Shown one piece after another: positions 2,721 through 56,981 of a stretch of DNA of 64,000 nt. Under the pieces are notes generated by a model. That model had not been told where the DNA came from. It was given only the letters and a program-made list of their open reading frames with translations, and did no database searches. The position numbers were made by a program, and so were the translations under genes. How positions within the stretch are numbered: position 1 is the stretch's first letter; each line of letters opens with the position of its first letter. The stretch lies in contig OX597823.1 in assembly GCA_951406725.2 (NCBI GenBank), positions 42,842,001-42,906,000 of the forward strand, read 5' to 3'. Source of the DNA: Octopus vulgaris. Taxonomy: Eukaryota.

Positions 2721-3742
2721 ACTATTAGTGCTGTATTCAGGTTATAATATTTCAGGTGGAGACTTGTACATTCAACTTGAAATTGCCCTAAAACTGAACA
2801 TTAAATTTAAGATCTGCGAGAAGTCGATAAAAGGTGTTTAGGTACCTCACTGAATGGAGTGTCAGAGATAAATTTTTTTTTCAAGTCACCAAGAAATTCA
2901 TTTTTCTTTTTTAGATTAAGCCCACAGGCTTTGTGTATATGTGTTGAAATGATAAAATCTGGCATTAGCGCCTAAGAAGTTTTTCAAAGGCATTAGAAAC
3001 GACAAAGGAATAAAATGCCATCGATTACAAATTTATAACTGATTTGCAATCCTTGGACGTTCGTGAGTTTTCGTGCTTATCAAAATAAAATAACTCATCA
3101 GAAAATATTTTAGAGGATAAAATAATCAGAAATGTAGTAGTCTTATCAAAATGGAGTTTGACAACAACATAAGCGATTCGATACACGAACACTGCATCAC
3201 TCCATTAAAACTTCTCCAAACAGCGACTAATCGCTAAAATGAAATATGAGAATAATCAGACTAAAAGAAAAATATGTCTATATTTGGTGCTCATCCAAGT
3301 AAAGGGTCTGAATAATCAACAATTTTCGATGAAGAAGATACCACTAACATGTTAAAGATGGCGCGATTCTACTTAATATAATATTTGCAATCTGTATTTC
3401 ATTAGTCCACTTGTGCGATCAGGCACATAAACTAAGCCAGTTTCAACTGTTTATGTCTGTTTAGGTGTTGTTCGTATTTATGTAGTCAATATTTATAACA
3501 GTTGTTTACATATACAACAGCTACACTTTGTCTGTCCAGTCAATATCTAACTAGACGATACAGAAAATCAGAAAACGTCTGCTTTCGGTCAAATTTAAGT
3601 CCCCGTCTATATTTATTTAATGTATTTACTTTCCTTTCCTCTCTGTCAGAAATATAAAGTAAAAACTGAGAAAGTTACTTGAACTTACGAAAAGACGAAC
3701 AAGTTTTGAAAAACAGAATTGGTGGGAGTGCTAAGGACTTAC

Positions 3743-3892
3743 CTGAAAAGGAATGATCTGATTTTTTTATCCAATTCGGCATGCGCCGAAGTAGTATTCA
3801 TGCCAGCTTTCAGTTGAAATGTTAGTGATTTCTTCGTCATAATATACCGCTCGTTGTTCTGGTAGTTTAGCACCTCAATATCGCAGACGACC
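3743..3892 (-). CDS. Candidate internal exon (150 bp, phase 2-2) of a second lipocalin-like gene: VVCDIEVLNYQNNERYIMTKKSLTFQLKAGMNTTSAHAELDKKIRSFLF(R)
   Basis: Minus strand: acceptor ttttaccctgacaaatag, perfect donor CAG|GTAAGT, only one open frame. Weak ungapped similarity to exon 30291-30443 (Y-x-[ML]-T...TS...LF) with the same phases. Confidence 0.6.
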
Positions 3893-4390
3893 CTATTTGT
3901 CAGGGTAAAATATAAAATTGATTTTGAAAACATATTTTCTTTAGTGTACGTCTAACAGTAATTATCAACATTATTATCTGCAGAGATTATGGTTCAGGAC
4001 TACTTAGAAGAGACTTCAGGATAAACGTAGACTTGTCATCATTTAAAGAATATGATGACAGCAGAAATATTTCTAGAAAATTTGAAAGCTAAAAGACTCA
4101 TCGGTTATTGACTGTTGAATACACACACACAAACACACACTCAAATACACTCACATATACACATGAACATACGCATGTGTATATAAGTATACACACAATT
4201 CCCACACATATGCATGTTGAAATTTACAGAATACGAAAGACGAAGATAGGTGAAGGAACAAGAAACAAGTGAATTAGTTTAACGCTCAGAAGAAATGGAA
4301 AAGTCTTTGACGTTTTGAACCTGCGCTCTTCGACAGAAAGGACTGAGAGGAAACAATAGGAGAGAGAGAGAAAAAACATGTAGGGATGAT

Positions 4391-5104
4391 GCAATTTCCG
4401 TTGCCTCATCAGTAAGAACTGGCGCGAATTCTGCAGATTCCGGACTTATTTCTCCGTCAGTATATATGTTTCCCCCATAAAAATCTATGGCTGATTTAGC
4501 GAATCGCTAAAATGTATACAGAAAATTAATATAGTAATGTGAAATATTTTACCAAAAAGGAAAACTAATAGTTGTTACTGAATATGACTAGGGTGTTAGA
4601 AACAGTTACAATGCTAGAAATAAGAGCTAAAATGCTCTACTGCTGTAATGATCAGTAAGGACTAGATCGACTTCGGCAGATTCCGGACTTAATTTTCCGT
4701 CAGTATATATGTTTTCACCATAAAAATGTATGGATTCTTTAGTGGACGCTTATAGTATATACAAAAATTTCTGTTGCCTCATCAGTAAGGACAGGCTCCA
4801 GTGATGAAACTACGGAATTTGCCGAAACTAACCGGTCAGTATAGGCAATTATCGATCGGCAATTTCCGTTGCTTCATTCATAAGGACTGGTTCAACTGAT
4901 GAAGCAACGGAAATTGCCGAAACTGACCGGTCAGTATAGGGAATTCACGGTAGGTGTTTTCCGGCGATTATAGTGCCTGTCAGTATATAAGTGTACAATT
5001 ATGTGCTTTGACTCCAGCTTTAGGGTGACTAGCTCTTTTATCTAGCAATGTAGATGTTTCTAACACCCTAGGCTTATTTAGTAACAATTATAGTTTCCCT
5101 TTTT
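4391..5104. mobile_element. Composite element: ~76-bp imperfect terminal inverted repeats (4554-4629 / 5030-5104) enclosing repeated hammerhead-bearing units
   Basis: TIR core ctagggtgttagaaaca / tgtttctaacaccctag. The unit at 4391-4527 is repeated at about 4651-4770. The motif gtcagtata occurs five times. Confidence 0.75.
4896..4941 (+). ncRNA. Type I hammerhead ribozyme motif
   Basis: CTGATGA 4896-4902; stem II (a)GCAA-cggaaa-TTGC(c); GAAA 4919-4922; palindromic stem III ACTGACCGGTCAGT; GTA triplet 4934-4936. The stem I 5' strand is decayed here but is CCTTA in the inverted sister copies. A second, more decayed copy lies at 4801-4846. Confidence 0.7.
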
Positions 5105-5132
5105 CGTATAACACTGAACACTGCTCTTTATC

Positions 5133-5204
<72 letters not shown>

Positions 5205-5861
5205 TCTCACACACACATAAGCATACACAGAGACACTTACATACGCACATAAATGTCATGCATATGTATGTGCTTGTAGGTATGTGTGTGTGTTAGGTAT
5301 ATGTCTCAGCATTTCAATGTCCTTCCTGATTGTACTTATAGTTGCATAGGCTTCTTCCATTGAAGAAGGTGGGTATCATCTTGGCCAAACAAAATTTTCT
5401 ATGGCCTTACATTGCTCCATACCATGTGAGTTAAATTGAGCCGGAAGAAACTATAGAAGCTCGTTGGGTGAATTGTATCCGTAATAAGAGCACTGCCTTC
5501 TCATGCACTTTCACGCCGAGGAAATACATTCAACCAGAGGAAATATATTAAGGTTACCATGAGTCTCAAAAATACTTAGCCACCAACGCGTTAATTCATG
5601 AGGAGATAACTCAGATAGTCGAATGACAGAGATACAGTGAAAGAGCGGTGCTTAAACGGAATAAAGAAACTTCTTTCAAAAGCCTGAAAATGAATATAGC
5701 AGTCGCTAGACTTCGACCATCCTGTGTTTAGTCGAACAATTCGCGCCCAGTACTTATTTATAAACCTGGCAGTTATTTTATCCGTTCCTTTTGCTGAACC
5801 GGTTGTCAATAGATGGTGGGAGGCAAACACAAACACACATGCAAACAAACGCACGAACATG

Positions 5862-6210
5862 TGCTAAGAAACTTACTTTCCGAGTACATAGTTCCGGGTT
5901 CAGTCCCACTGCGTGGCACCTTAAAACGTTTCTTTTACTATAGCTTCGAGCCGATCAAAGGCTTGTGAGTGGATTTGGTAGATGGAAACTGTAAGAAACC
6001 CATCGTGTATATATATGCATATATCTATGTGTCTGTGACTTTGTTCTCTGTTTGTCCCCCCTCCCCAGCACTGTGGCGTGGGTGAGTCTACGTCCCTGTA
6101 ACTTAGCAGGTCGATAAAATAAGCTCTGGGTTCGATTTGTTTGACTATAACCCTTCAAGAGGGTACTCTAGCATGTCTTCAATCAAATGACTGAAACAAG
6201 TAAAAGCATA
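5862..6210 (+). mobile_element. SINE family B
   Basis: ggttcagtcccactgcgtggcacctt...gtgagtggatttggtagatggaaactg...caaatgactgaaacaagtaaaag. Confidence 0.88.
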
Positions 6211-18094: not shown

Positions 18095-19370
18095 CGAGGG
18101 ACGTTCAATAAGTAATGCCTCTGAACCACTTGCAGTTGTTTGATCTAGCTGAAATTTTCCATGTGCAATTATGTATATCTCAATAGAGTAAGTGGCAAAT
18201 TACAGCTCTGAATTAATTGTGGTTTCTGATTTACGGGTGTTTGAACCGAGTCAAGTGTGAAATGGAGCCTATTAAGTGTCGAGCAGTGATCCGGTTTTTG
18301 TATTTGAAAGGACGCACACCACGGGAGACTTTTGATGAAATAAAAGTAACTTATGATGATGATGCCCCATCATATGACCTTGTAAAACGCTGGCATCGTG
18401 AATTCAAACATGGTCGGGACTCTGTGGAAACAGCTCCCAGATCTGGTCGCCCCTTCTGCCATTGATGAGGCATCTGTCCGTCAAGTTGAGGCTGTCATTT
18501 TGGAAGATCGACGCATAATTAATCGCCAAATAGCCCATGAGGTCAAGATTAGTACCGGGTCTGTGGAAACTATCATTCATGACCATTTGCATATGCAAAA
18601 GGTGTCTGCCAGATGGATTCCCAGGTTGCTCACGCCTTTCCGGAAGCAAGAACGCGTCGAGTGCTCGAGGGTGAATTTGGAGATGTGCCAAGAAGATGAG
18701 TCAAAATTTTTCAAAAGACTGATTACACAGGATGAAACCTGGGTCCATTACGATGATCCAGAGACCAAAGCCCAGTCAATGCAGTGGAAGCACCGTGACT
18801 CACCCCCTCCAAAGAAGGCAAGGGTGCAGCTCTCCGCTGGCAAGGTCATGCTCACAGTAGTGAGTAGTGATGACAGATTTCCTGGCAAAGGGTAACATAA
18901 TTGCAGGAGCCTATTATGCTTCACTTTTGAGGAAATTAAGAGAAGTTATCAAAATCAAGAGGCGGGGCAAGATCAGCAAAGGCATCCTCCTCCTGCAGGA
19001 CAACGCTCCGGTCCACAACTCGCTTGTCGCCAGATCAGAAGCACAGGCGTATGGCTATGAACTCCTCCCCCATCCTCCTACTTTCCTGACCTTGCACCCT
19101 CGGATTTTCACCTCTTCCCAGCCATGAAGTTGTTTTTGAAAGGAAAGCGTTTCCCAGATGATGCAGCCTTGATTTCTGAAGTCACGTTCAGGTTGGAGGA
19201 CCAAGCTGGGGTCTTCTACAAAAACGGTCTCCAGAGCTGCATCAAACAATGGGAGAAATGCGTAACTCTGGGTGGTTGCTATGTAGAAAAAGACTAATAA
19301 CTGTGCCAAGTTTCGTTGCTCTACTGCTATGGGAAGTGGGTCAGGGGCATTACTTATTGAACGCCCCTCG
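18095..19370 (+). mobile_element. Near-complete mariner transposon (DD34D, irritans-like), 1276 bp
   Basis: 37-bp TIRs cgaggg(a/g)cgttcaataagtaatgcc(t/c)ctga(a/c)ccactt with 3 mismatches; TA duplications at 18093-18094 and 19371-19372. Confidence 0.97.
18262..19297 (+). pseudogene. Mariner transposase pseudogene
   Basis: MEPIKCRAVIRFL...RSGRP / WIPRLL...ITQDETWV / QDNAPVH / PDLAPSDFHLF...YVEKD*. The second and third catalytic Asp are 34 aa apart. Frameshifts near 18452, 18860 (loss of the FWD segment) and 19078. Confidence 0.95.
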
Positions 19371-32953: not shown

Positions 32954-33002
32954 TGATTCTAACAAGAAATATTATTTATTAATTGCGCTCTTATTTAATA
33001 TG

Positions 33003-33096
<94 letters not shown>

Positions 33097-33101
33097 TGAT
33101 G

Positions 33102-33168
<67 letters not shown>

Positions 33169-33169
<1 letters not shown>

Positions 33170-33770
33170 TGGTGGGAACACAAACCACCTCCAGTGCTTG
33201 AAAATGCTCACATCTCACTCCTCTGGAACTTCACCATTCAAACTGACAGAAAGATAGATGCGAATAGGCCACACATAATATTGAAAGACTTCAGACAAAA
33301 ATCATGCTTCCTCGTTGATAATGTTGTCCCAATCGATATAAACGTATCTGTCAAGACCTACCAAAAACTGAGCAAATATAAAGATCTTGAAATAGAAATT
33401 AGCAAAATGTGGAACCTGAAGACTAAAACAGTACCTGTTGTCATAGGTGCCCTGGGAATGATATCAAAAGGGGCTGATTGCTACCTAGCTGAGATACCAG
33501 GAACCCCCAAAATGGCAGAAATTCAAAAGATAGTGCTCATGGGAACTGCTCGTATCCTACGCAAAATACTTTCTATATAATCTCAAGTTTTAAAGCAAAC
33601 ATAAGTTTCTAATGGTTTCTTAAACATTCTCCAGAACAACACTATGTACAAAACCAAATATATGGCACCTAGGCATAACACCAGCATGAAATTCCAGCTT
33701 GTTGTCTCTTGAGGTCTCTGGGTGAGACTTGGAGCCAACTTGCACAAATGTAAAGCAGAAGTCAAACACA

Positions 33771-42173: not shown

Positions 42174-42293
42174 ATTTATTATATAGAAGGAGCTTCTACA
42201 GGACTAGAACTGTTTCATTCAAGAGAAATCTTCAGTCCTGAAGATTTCTCTTGAATGAAACAGTTCTAGTCCTGTAGAAGCTCCTTCTATATA

Positions 42294-42299
<6 letters not shown>
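42174..42299. repeat. Perfect 62-bp-arm palindrome (2-nt spacer); each arm starts with an HHR-like core
   Basis: Arms 42174-42235 and 42238-42299; CTGAAGA-tTTC-tctt-GAAt-GAAAC reads outward from the centre on both strands. Confidence 0.9.
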
Positions 42300-42367: not shown

Positions 42368-43140
42368 AAACAAGGCCAAAGTCATGGACTTCCACGGAGT
42401 ATCAAAGACAAACATCGGGTTGACGCGCAACTCGTTCAAGGAAATATACACACATCTGTCGTCACTCAAGGAAATTAAAAAAAGACACACGATATCCCTG
42501 TCCAGTATGTCTACATTGAAAGAAGGTGGAGTAAGCAACCTCTAGATATCATTGAGCATTATTACTAAAGCCAGAACATACTGGAGATGGTGTACAAAAT
42601 GTGAGCTTTGCATTACTGAAAATCTAAACATCATCCAATCAAAAGATTGCATCTTACGCTCCGAGATATTAAAGCGGAACCACCACCCACTCCAACGATC
42701 CTATCAGGATAGATTTTTTTCTCTGAACGTGGCCATTAAATACATAGATCATACGAAATCCACACGTAGAAGTCACATGCCCTCATGATGAACTACCTCA
42801 ACACACAAACATAAGATCATTACACACACCCAGGATATAACATAATATAAAACAAACTTATTATTCCGTGCAATGTTTTCTAAAATTCAAGTCCAAAGCA
42901 ACCCTTGGTTTCTTGTTTTATAACCAAAAATTCACGCCAGGCATAATCGTGAATTCCTATGTTTTTTCGTGTTTTAATCTAAAATGGAGATGAACACCAT
43001 TCCTCCATGTGATCGACTTGAAAAATCGTTAACATATGAAGATACTTTCTAAGCATGAAACCAATGGTAGCCTTACATAAATAAAGAATCCTTATTCACC
43101 AAAGCAGTGTTGAACACTCACTCTCATGTTCGATATTTAA
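42368..43140 (+). mobile_element. Penelope-like element 3' part: decayed GIY-YIG endonuclease plus pLTR with a decayed HHR
   Basis: KAKV....SKTNIGLTRNSFKE.Y.H.SS....K...ISLS...SIITKARTY....KCELCITE...I...RSEI; aTGAAGA...aagca-t-GAAA-CC-aat-GGTA at 43036-43069. Confidence 0.8.
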
Positions 43141-43739: not shown

Positions 43740-43915
43740 AACCACTGAACTCAATACGTTTCTTCTTCATCTATTTATTTTCTCGTATTCCTTTCTATCG
43801 ATGAGCATAGGATCGAAACACGTAAAAGACTTTTCATTTTCCCCGAGTGCCAAACCAATACACTAATTGTTCCTACACCTGATTACGTCCTTCTTTTCCT
43901 ATAAATTTGAACTAT
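43740..43915 (+). mobile_element. Short repeat relic with a decayed HHR-like core
   Basis: cttt-cta-tcgatga-gcataggatc-GAAAC-ac-GTA-aaag (43791-43828); cttt/aaag could form stem I. Confidence 0.4.
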
Positions 43916-46398: not shown

Positions 46399-46983
46399 CA
46401 AATGCTACAGATATCAATATGGAACGAAAGAAATAAGATAACTGTTCTCAATCAAACTCTCTGAATAAGACCTTAGGAAACACTGCGAAATGTTTCCAAA
46501 AATTCCGACCTCGTCAGTATGTTTTGCTAATTTAGACTAATGGATTGCATTCCTTGTCTGAAGTGCATTTTATATAAGTAAAACAGTCGTTATCAGGCTG
46601 ATTAGTGCCAGGAATATCTTGTCGACAGAAATATGCTTTTTGAAAACTGAGGCCTACCATTTCAAAACACCTGGGTACTTTATTACTACATTATTGGCTC
46701 TAGGATTCACTGATAGTTTAGTCTGAAGGTGACTTGCCAAGCATTCGTTCCACCAAAATATTTCCTCTCATCTGATATGAAAACTCGCCTCCAAGTTCTC
46801 TTACCTACTCCTATTCAACTAGCATTCTGTATTAAACATCGACGCTTCATATTAATCTGTCTGATCTTTTGCAGCTGTGTTGTGTGCCATTTAATATGTT
46901 AGTGGTCCCTTGGGCTTCGTGCCACATCCCCAATCAGGCCACTCTTCTCTTTTGTCAGCTTGAATCTACATAGATAAAATCAT

Positions 46984-47434
46984 CCTATTTCTTTACTACC
47001 CACAAGGGGCTAAACACAGAGAGGACAAACAAGGACAGACAAACGGATTAAGTCGATTATATCGACCCCAGTGCGTAACTGGTATTTTATTTATTGACCC
47101 CGAAAGGATGAAAGGCAAAGTCGACCTCGGCAGAATTTGAACTCAGAACGTAACGGCAGACGAAATACAGCTAGGCATTTCGCCCGGTGTGCTAACGTTT
47201 CTTATTTCTTTATTGCCTACAAGGGGCTAAGCATAGAGGAGAGAAACAAGGACAGACAAACGGATTAAGTCGATTATATCGACCCCAGTGCGTAATTGGT
47301 ATTTAATTTATTGACCCCGAAAGGATGAAAGGCAAAGTCGACCTCGGCGGAATTTGAACTCAGAACGTAACGGCAGACGAAATACAGCTACGCATATCGC
47401 TTGGCATGCTAACATTTCTGCCAGCTCGCCGCCT
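46984..47434 (-). mobile_element. Head-to-tail dimer of SINE family A
   Basis: Complete unit 47202-47434 followed on the minus strand by a unit lacking about 20 nt of head (46984-47201); the two units are highly similar. Confidence 0.92.
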
Positions 47435-55129: not shown

Positions 55130-56981
55130 CCAAAATGCAACTGTTAGTATAGCAGAAACTTGCATTGAATGTTTGAATACTTTGACTAATAAAAAAAAAT
55201 GTGGATGTTGGATCAAGCTCTATCCATCAATTAGTAGAGTAATACCAAATCGTGGACAGTCCTTTTTATGTACAACCGGAAATTCGACAAAACAAACTCA
55301 ATGCAGGAACGGTCTGTGGATTTTTATGAGGACCCCGATAAAGGTAATGCAACAGATAATTACCGACCTATCTCCAGCTTACACTTGTTGTGGAAGTTGA
55401 GGGCAAGAATAATATCTAATTGTGAATATGACTCCTTGGGAATGAATGACACTGCCAGTGGAAGAGAAGAGACACAGGAGGAAAATCTGAGGGAAGAGGA
55501 TCATTTTCTTATAGAGAGAATGTTGCTGAATGGCTGCAAGAAAATCTTACTCATCTGGATATGGCCTGGATCGATTATATGAAAACTTATGACATGTTCC
55601 CCATTCCTGAACTTTATAAAGTATTGAATAAGTACAGTAGGTGTTTGATAACATTTTAAATCTTATCAGATCGATGAAGAAACGGAATACACAGTTAATA
55701 TCATGTGGAAAATATTTAGCGAGGGCATCAAAAGAGGCATATTTCAGGGAGATAGTCTGACACCACTGCAGTTTGGGATTTTTAAGATACCCCTAACACA
55801 GATATTACGGAAAGTGACATCGGGGTACACCTTGAAAAATGGAGAAATGATAAATCACTTGTTATATATGTATGACTTTAAAATCATCGGGAAGATTGAA
55901 AGTGAAATTAATGGACTGGTATTAACAGTGCAGATTTTCAGTAAGGATATTGGGATAGAATTTAGAATTAAAAAGTGTGGTATGCTTGTCATCAAAAAAG
56001 CAAAGTAGTGTCATCTGATGATATAAAACTATCCAACGGCGGGAGAATCAAAATTGTTAAGATGGATGGATATAAGTATATGAGTGTTTTGGAGTATGAC
56101 AAAATCAAGGAGAGTGAGGTGAAGGAAAGCCCCAGAAGAACCAAATTAATTATGGACAGTAGACTCAATAGAAAGAACAAAATTAGGGCAATGAAAACAT
56201 GGGTTATTTCTTTCATGCGATGCGATGCAGATGTTGTCAGGTGGACAAAAAAGGAGCTCAAGAAATTGATAGAAAAGCAGGAAGGTGATGACAATGGAAA
56301 GGAACTATTCTCTAAACACGACATCGGTAGATACAAGGGAAGAAGAGGCTTCATAGGTTGCAGGATCTGCGTTGTTTATGAGGAAAACAGTCTGGGATGG
56401 TACGTTAAACAGCAGATTGAACCTTTCTCGCTGTTAGAAATAACAAGATGATACTTACTGAAAATATGACACATCTAAAAACATTTAGGAAGCAAGATGG
56501 AGAACAAAGATTAAACAGCGGCAAAATGAAAACTTTGCAATACCTCAGAGAAATCGAAGGGGAAGACAAGGCCAATACATGGAGGTGGTTAAGGAAAAGT
56601 GATCTGAAAGGATGCACTGAGGCATTGATTGCAGTTCCCAGGAGCAACCTCTAAGAACTTACACCATGTTCCAATAGATAAGATCGTTGTAGGATGTGTG
56701 GCAACAAAAACGAAGCAATCTCACATATTGTTAGTGTAGCAAACTGGCAGAAAAGGAATACAAAATGAGGCACGATAATGTGGATAAATTTGTTCGCCTG
56801 AATGAATACGGTAACGGCACGAAAATAAATCAGAAGGCGTTACTGAGAATAATGAATATAAGATCTTATTGGATTTTACAATCCAATGCTACTCACTAAT
56901 TGAACTCACAAGATAAAGACGGAAGAAATGCGCTACACATTTTATTCGACTTCCTAGTGATTTTGACATCTGGCTTTCTCG

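Follow-up and report, generated by a model that had tools for sequence, protein, structure and literature searches.

A decayed and multiply rearranged hammerhead repeat in Octopus vulgaris, probably of a retrozyme family with Penelope-type insertion anatomy

Penelope-like elements (PLEs), together with non-LTR retrozymes, are the described mobile elements closest to the locus reported here. In the accessible text of the work on their integration, PLE insertions carry an inverted, 5'-truncated copy together with a tail of 30-40 bp at one end (PMC8557442), Penelope-like junctions are mostly head-to-head and come with palindromes (PMC3846280), and such insertions commonly contain inverted copies that meet head-to-head at palindromic junctions (PMC3846280, PMC8557442). 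Reverse transcription by the purified PLE PAc begins at two internal positions, which define the tail, and at AT-rich cuts the enzyme extends both strands (PMC11167929). A palindromic helix III and a G10.1-C11.1 pair are described traits of Penelope-type hammerheads (PMC4209133). Non-LTR retrozymes, for which a multimeric or circular template has been proposed (PMC7229834), derive from PLEs according to a preprint by Li et al. (2026), which also recognizes families dominated by monomers and applies the term 'active' to tandem retrozymes in which two or more complete hammerheads follow one another (10.64898/2026.07.22.740005). As far as the available portions of the retrozyme literature go, mobilization by Penelope-like enzymes is treated as a hypothesis, built on co-occurrence and sequence kinship.

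In the window, by which is meant the whole 64,000-nucleotide stretch of Octopus vulgaris DNA under analysis, every part of 4391-5147 maps to one of six pieces of a single cyclic 353-bp monomer, with 86-94% identity to the family consensus (Table 1). The best explanation, to which we assign a probability of roughly 80%, is that the locus consists of six rearranged and decayed pieces of a dispersed, non-coding 353-bp repeat that bears a predicted type I hammerhead where copies are intact and is likely a non-LTR retrozyme, copied in by a Penelope-like enzyme. The locus is no new kind of element, its inverted layout being typical of Penelope-like insertions. It represents a copy, decayed and rearranged several times over, of what is probably an undescribed retrozyme family (family A below) with ordinary Penelope-type insertion anatomy, and the window copy itself is likely inert. 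The first-pass annotation had proposed a non-autonomous hammerhead element in the orbit of Penelope and the retrozymes; that placement is borne out, and its variant of nested inverted Penelope pLTRs came close. Monomer positions are counted from the first base past the predicted cut, which places stem I from 308, the CUGAUGA box from 313 and GAAAC from 336.

Table 1. Repeat pieces and associated features in the window (monomer coordinates refer to the cyclic 353-bp consensus)
Feature	Position	Strand	Description
Family B piece	4216..4381	-	75% to copy in L088; hammerhead-like motif ~4309-4336; 9 bp from A1, same sense
Piece A1	4391..4647	-	monomer 77-334; ends within hammerhead stem II; carries left 'TIR'; 89% to consensus
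Piece A2	4651..4769	-	monomer 198-317; ends within CUGAUGA box; 88% to consensus
Piece A3	4766..4798	-	monomer 300-332, spanning the 5' strand of stem I, the core box and stem II; 94% to consensus
Piece A4	4801..4859	+	monomer 313/314-18; broken hammerhead (C3G, stems II and III mismatched, 5' stem I strand absent)
Piece A5	4856..4897	-	monomer 296-337; 'antisense arm'; 3-nt overlap with A6 at join
Piece A6	4895..5147	+	monomer 312-353 and 1-210; terminates at the major 3' end of the family; carries right 'TIR'
Piece A6 hammerhead core	4896-4936	+	cut predicted to follow 4936; carries G10.1A; lacks a native 5' strand of stem I
(TA)n microsatellite	5138..5203		long arm terminates in it
Family B, further copy	43774-43912	+	very abundant repeat

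The two long arms, A1 and A6, are opposite copies that have monomer positions 77-210 in common. A cassette bounded by terminal inverted repeats (TIRs) of ~76 bp and ending at 5104 had been proposed. The underlying inverted repeat exists (4555-4629/5030-5104, 75 nt, 80%), but it falls inside the common 77-210 tract, the inverted duplication extends over at least 4512-4629/5030-5150, element sequence runs on beyond both supposed TIR arms, and the 3' limit of the element lies at about 5140-5147, inside the (TA)n run. Five junctions join the pieces. The locus also holds a near-tandem pair of 95 bp (4766-4860/4861-4955, 80% alike), a direct repeat of 120 nt and, in three copies, an antisense hammerhead half of 32 nt, and the minus-strand 5' halves of the earlier reading were recovered at 4391, 4766 and 4856. 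Eight of the 11 internal ends fall at monomer 296-337, several of them non-independent given the 95-bp duplication; since the 5' ends of family arms are not enriched within the hammerhead (6/46 vs 8.2 expected), this clustering is a trait of the window locus. Three candidate end pairs (the 'TIR' ends, 4391/5140 and 4216/5140) show no target-site duplication (TSD) of more than 4 nt, and no ORF of at least 120 aa lies at the locus. When four contig sets were aligned to 4250-5135, family fragments were found, none of which spans the locus among the matches listed; the 20% divergence of the duplicated units would argue against a duplication created by assembly.

The 353-bp monomer (GC 37.7%) is a consensus built from genomic loci. 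The genome searched amounts to 2.8 Gb in 227 contigs. With 4640-5030 as query, 713 first-look candidates were obtained, 40 of which were scored to give 87 matches, while another monomer search returned 612 and a search for a second subfamily 954 first-look candidates, none of these figures being a copy number. A 37-nt stretch of the hammerhead has 58 sites at no more than two mismatches vs none for a reversed control. Pooling the 4640-5030, 612-candidate and 37-nt searches gave 90 loci, all of them top-scoring matches rather than a random sample, and 71 of these form the count set; the 19 left out are the window's own locus, repeat hits and the four loci that nearly duplicate locus L084. Identity to the consensus has a median of 87% (89 fragments). 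In many other loci the query part 12-130, reversed, directly precedes 256-384, an arrangement which indicates that the native unit is unlike the window layout and has its own stem I strand. Sequence continues beyond one monomer at 26 of the 71 loci, and the longest continuous run, at L134 in the second subfamily, reaches 720 nt; such runs point to a multimeric or circular template. Two motif sites lie 353 bp apart in L017, one of them broken; among the top matches no locus has two intact tandem hammerheads, and arrays span at most about two monomers. Words of L017 are also present in sequencing runs labelled as four organisms, and among the runs listed none is recorded as RNA. A literature search found no paper on this family, which Repbase/Dfam or paper supplements may nevertheless hold.

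The family consensus contains a complete predicted type I hammerhead motif with a conserved core, the G10.1-C11.1 pair and three stems, and the composite that the first-pass annotation had assembled from the window copies proves to be this genomic motif. Core and all stems are intact in 15 of 39 hammerhead regions (54 loci), and stem I retains at least four of its five pairs in 36 of them. The second subfamily has a different stem I, CTTAA/TTAAG, changed on both strands and fully paired (5/5) in 10 of 12 motif matches; its commonest stem III (4/12) is likewise a different palindrome. Among 22 aligned rows that include both window copies, 88% of pairing cells are paired vs 23-40% with slid partners, and three of the five stem I pairs are changed on both sides, figures that come from hand-picked rows of related subfamilies whose relatedness inflates the shuffle test. 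The predicted fold of the consensus circle has a minimum free energy of -102.5 vs -73.0 +/- 5.3 for 100 shuffles (z = -5.6).

At the window locus itself, the two plus-strand hammerheads described earlier are real motifs, neither of which is intact. The first carries C3G with stems II and III broken and the second G10.1A; in both, stem I is without its 5' strand, which went missing at an inversion junction. The core pattern matches at 4896-4923, and the whole window has six matches vs a shuffle mean of 0.52. A further hammerhead core match lies at 46492-46517 (-). The supposed cleavage-site word GTCAGTATA does occur five times (4456, 4699, 4835, 4930 and 4979), but only the copies at 4835 and 4930 stand at the predicted cleavage site, the other three deriving from monomer 43 (sense strand) or ~269 (antisense strand). 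A hammerhead scan, suggested at the outset, gave no Rfam hammerhead in 3500-6200, where the matches were only to miRNA families and driven by microsatellites or hairpins; on six family loci, Hammerhead_3 was placed over the motif in two, below threshold (E 0.024 and 0.054).

The ends of its copies bear on how the family came to be dispersed. Free 3' ends concentrate in two clusters about 48 nt apart that together hold 70 of 94: monomer 190-215 accounts for 48, a number inflated by the 612-candidate query, which needed cover to about monomer 200, and 140-165 accounts for 22, vs about seven in each under a uniform spread of ends (26-nt windows). The 190-215 cluster is also plain among the loci found with query 4640-5030. 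The 5' ends are scattered, with no pile-up at the predicted cut (5/70 passages) and no enrichment just upstream of the core (8/60 vs 48/394, p = 0.47). Adjacent opposite arms occur at 23 of the 71 loci, all head-to-head and none tail-to-tail, and the second subfamily repeats the pattern (8/23 head-to-head, 0 tail-to-tail). The earlier statement that hammerheads normally occur as direct repeats overlooks the head-to-head inverted copies described as common for Penelope-like insertions. The outer ends of the 23 inverted loci pair one long with one short end in 10 cases and two long ends in none. At 9 of 23 junctions the 5' ends of the two arms lie no more than 25 nt apart, where 4.0 would be expected (p = 0.008). 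Arms from a single locus have 47/183 variants in common vs 1213/9371 for arms of different loci; together these results suggest coupling between the arms or fold-back, with fold-back and two-ended priming not separated. A microsatellite adjoins 30 of 42 major ends and also 6 of 10 other ends, against a high background.

These features suggest a route of insertion. At targets rich in A and T, a multimeric or circular monomer RNA would be reverse-transcribed from two internal starts, one near monomer 203 and the other near 155. The two arms would then be joined at their 5'-truncated ends via short microhomology, giving rise to inverted repeats and hairpins. At the window locus, extra template jumps or fold-backs, with breakpoints mostly at 296-337, would have produced the small pieces between the long arms.

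Other histories can be written for the same DNA. The small pieces might postdate insertion, an original simple pair of arms having been reshaped by slippage and by rearrangement that the inverted repeats drove, a sequence of events that we find possible, if on the unlikely side. The 95-bp near-tandem duplication with its nearly identical junction seen twice would follow naturally, as would the one variant common to A4, A5 and A6; yet A4 and A6, with seven and four differences from the consensus, share only one, so that any duplication would be about as old as the insertion. Such a history alters the timing only, not the identity of the element. More doubtful is the proposal that an autonomous Penelope-like element has the monomer as its pLTR, with the copies being the 5'-truncated ends of that element. 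The end signature and the inversions fit a pLTR equally well, the accessible part of the 2026 preprint reports a close kinship between retrozymes and pLTRs (10.64898/2026.07.22.740005), and the search for a partner covered only 1.5 kb of flank per side with one protein probe. Within that reach, no sense ORF lies beside any of 94 loci (71 and 23 of the second subfamily), nor does an autonomous partner, that is, an RT and GIY-YIG ORF bounded by the repeat. Sequence past the 3' cluster (210-353) returns to the hammerhead with no ORF, and the 26 loci continuous for more than 353 nt also speak against a pLTR. The only PLE neighbour found among the 94 loci is a broken PLE ORF, antisense beside L084/L088, with a different pLTR; its own hammerhead is a different, minimal one, which 15 other copies of that PLE end carry as well. 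Family B, introduced below, was rejected as the pLTR of this element, the 15 copies of the PLE end being without A, B or C, and a GIY-YIG-like motif at L022 was rejected as a partner as other repeats lie between it and the monomer. A Pfam scan of the PLE-like fragments in the window gave nothing informative.

Miniature inverted-repeat transposable elements (MITEs) are short and non-coding, with terminal inverted repeats that define both ends, a TSD and many copies of one cassette. The first-pass annotation had offered a MITE that captured a retrozyme; such an element would move as DNA on ~75-bp TIRs, and the 75-nt, 80% inverted repeat does flank most of the small pieces; in being short, non-coding and bearing an inverted repeat, the window locus resembles a MITE. 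Its repeats, however, are internal monomer sequence with homology running past them, no TSD longer than 4 nt accompanies them, the family has no fixed ends on both sides, inversion points vary across the 71 loci and none of these repeats the window cassette, which leaves the idea scarcely credible. Hardly better placed, and in our view very improbable, is the suggestion that the perfect 22-bp hairpin (4856-4877/4899-4920) is a selected antisense lock that holds the second hammerhead off until release. The hairpin is present as first described, with a fold z of -7.75 for 4760-4950, and its arm has remained perfect in a locus that stands 6-14% from consensus. Folding also predicts that the arm buries the core: the penalty for imposing the hammerhead fold is 36.9 kcal/mol when the arm is present and 15.2 when it is absent, vs 3.3 in the consensus and 3.3-9.9 in three copies from the genome, values that consider secondary structure only. 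An inversion at L002 has its junction at the identical coordinates, 312/296, with a 3-nt overlap, which indicates that this junction point can recur. Against a lock stands the ribozyme itself, already broken by G10.1A and by the lack of a stem I strand. The hairpin is the inversion junction, and its exact sequence occurs once in 2.8 Gb, at the window locus, which leaves a conserved lock unsupported; nor is the hammerhead the centre of family inversions. A shared template, or conversion inside the hairpin, accounts for the G-to-A change common to A4, A5 and A6.

Returning to the retrozyme reading, the neighbouring family B piece (Table 1) raises the question of what else the enzyme may have copied. 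In family B the hammerhead-like motif shows CUGUCGA or CUGUUGA substituting for CUGANGA. Families A and B at the window may form one chimeric insertion. A more specific version has the two target ends of one insertion primed by a Penelope-type enzyme on separate RNAs (A tail at 5147, B tail at ~4216), with repeated template jumps at the folded hammerhead; we judge it unlikely. If true, it would make the locus fossil evidence that one enzyme serves retrozyme circles as well as other PLE clients, and that a ribozyme fold acts as a jump site for reverse transcriptase. Chimerism of A and B as a trait of the family was discarded, B being abundant (inside 14/71 A loci vs 3/19 control loci) and L063 likely a plain nested insertion. 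Family C, a ~290-bp repeat found upstream of L003 (L003:1150-1440) and in L032-L050, has 3287 first-look candidates and often forms tandem or inverted pieces; it was dropped as a candidate element body, with the monomer in only 1 of 19 of its loci, and the hammerhead pattern is in none of six of its loci checked.

Several further observations concern related or neighbouring sequences. Window positions 42174-42299 form a perfect 62-bp palindrome with a 2-nt spacer between TA runs, containing another hammerhead-like motif with the junction at its CUGA box, and are apparently a second, younger head-to-head insertion. The palindrome is followed at ~42370-42760 by a broken stretch, without a Pfam match, that we take to resemble the endonuclease end of a PLE. 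L084, L085, L088, L089 and L090 are near-identical, lie on three contigs (C6, C7 and, for three of them, C31) and have the broken PLE ORF and A head-to-head with B; the group is a recent segmental duplication or assembly redundancy, and a long palindrome is present in the three of its loci that were read. In the 3' region of that PLE family (L117-L131), ~60-150 bp past the ORF end, a tRNA-like stretch (by eye) and (AAT)n precede a minimal hammerhead. Elsewhere the window, which is rich in microsatellites, holds a mariner-type transposase fragment at 18386-18895 (+) (PF01359, E 1.4e-5), open frames that resemble non-LTR retrotransposon remnants by eye at 32999-33580 (+), without a Pfam match, and at 55972-56451 (+), and a two-copy tandem repeat of 217 bp at 46986-47419.

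Taken alone, the locus is a dead, scrambled repeat. The family behind it has no ORF and offers genomic evidence pointing to Penelope-type retrozyme mobilization in the form of two internal start points, a one-sided tail and head-to-head inversion, and it is a ready substrate for in vitro priming with PLE protein. Like endonuclease-positive PLEs, the family shows variable 5' truncation, a head-to-head inverted copy and palindromic junctions (PMC8557442, PMC3846280), and it shares with PLEs a one-sided tail, two fixed internal 3' end points (PMC11167929, PMC8557442) and a palindromic helix III (PMC4209133). It differs from them in having neither an RT nor a GIY-YIG ORF, in the ~48 nt between its 3' end clusters vs the 30-40 bp described for the PLE tail in the text available and, at the window locus, in having five junctions where PLE insertions are described with one. 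Compared with retrozymes, again as far as the accessible sources describe them, the sampled copies are dispersed, mostly shorter than 1.6 monomers, old (median 87%) and often inverted, and helix III, at 5 bp and 4 nt, is longer than the usual 1-2 bp. With the metazoan non-LTR retrozymes the family has in common a type I hammerhead, a low-GC monomer within 150-450 bp and the absence of ORFs and LTRs (PMC7229834; 10.64898/2026.07.22.740005), as well as tandem continuity and a predicted self-paired circle. Its 353 bp and 37.7% GC sit beside mussel retrozyme repeats of ~350-390 bp and a retrozyme GC content below 45-50% (PMC7229834; 10.64898/2026.07.22.740005).
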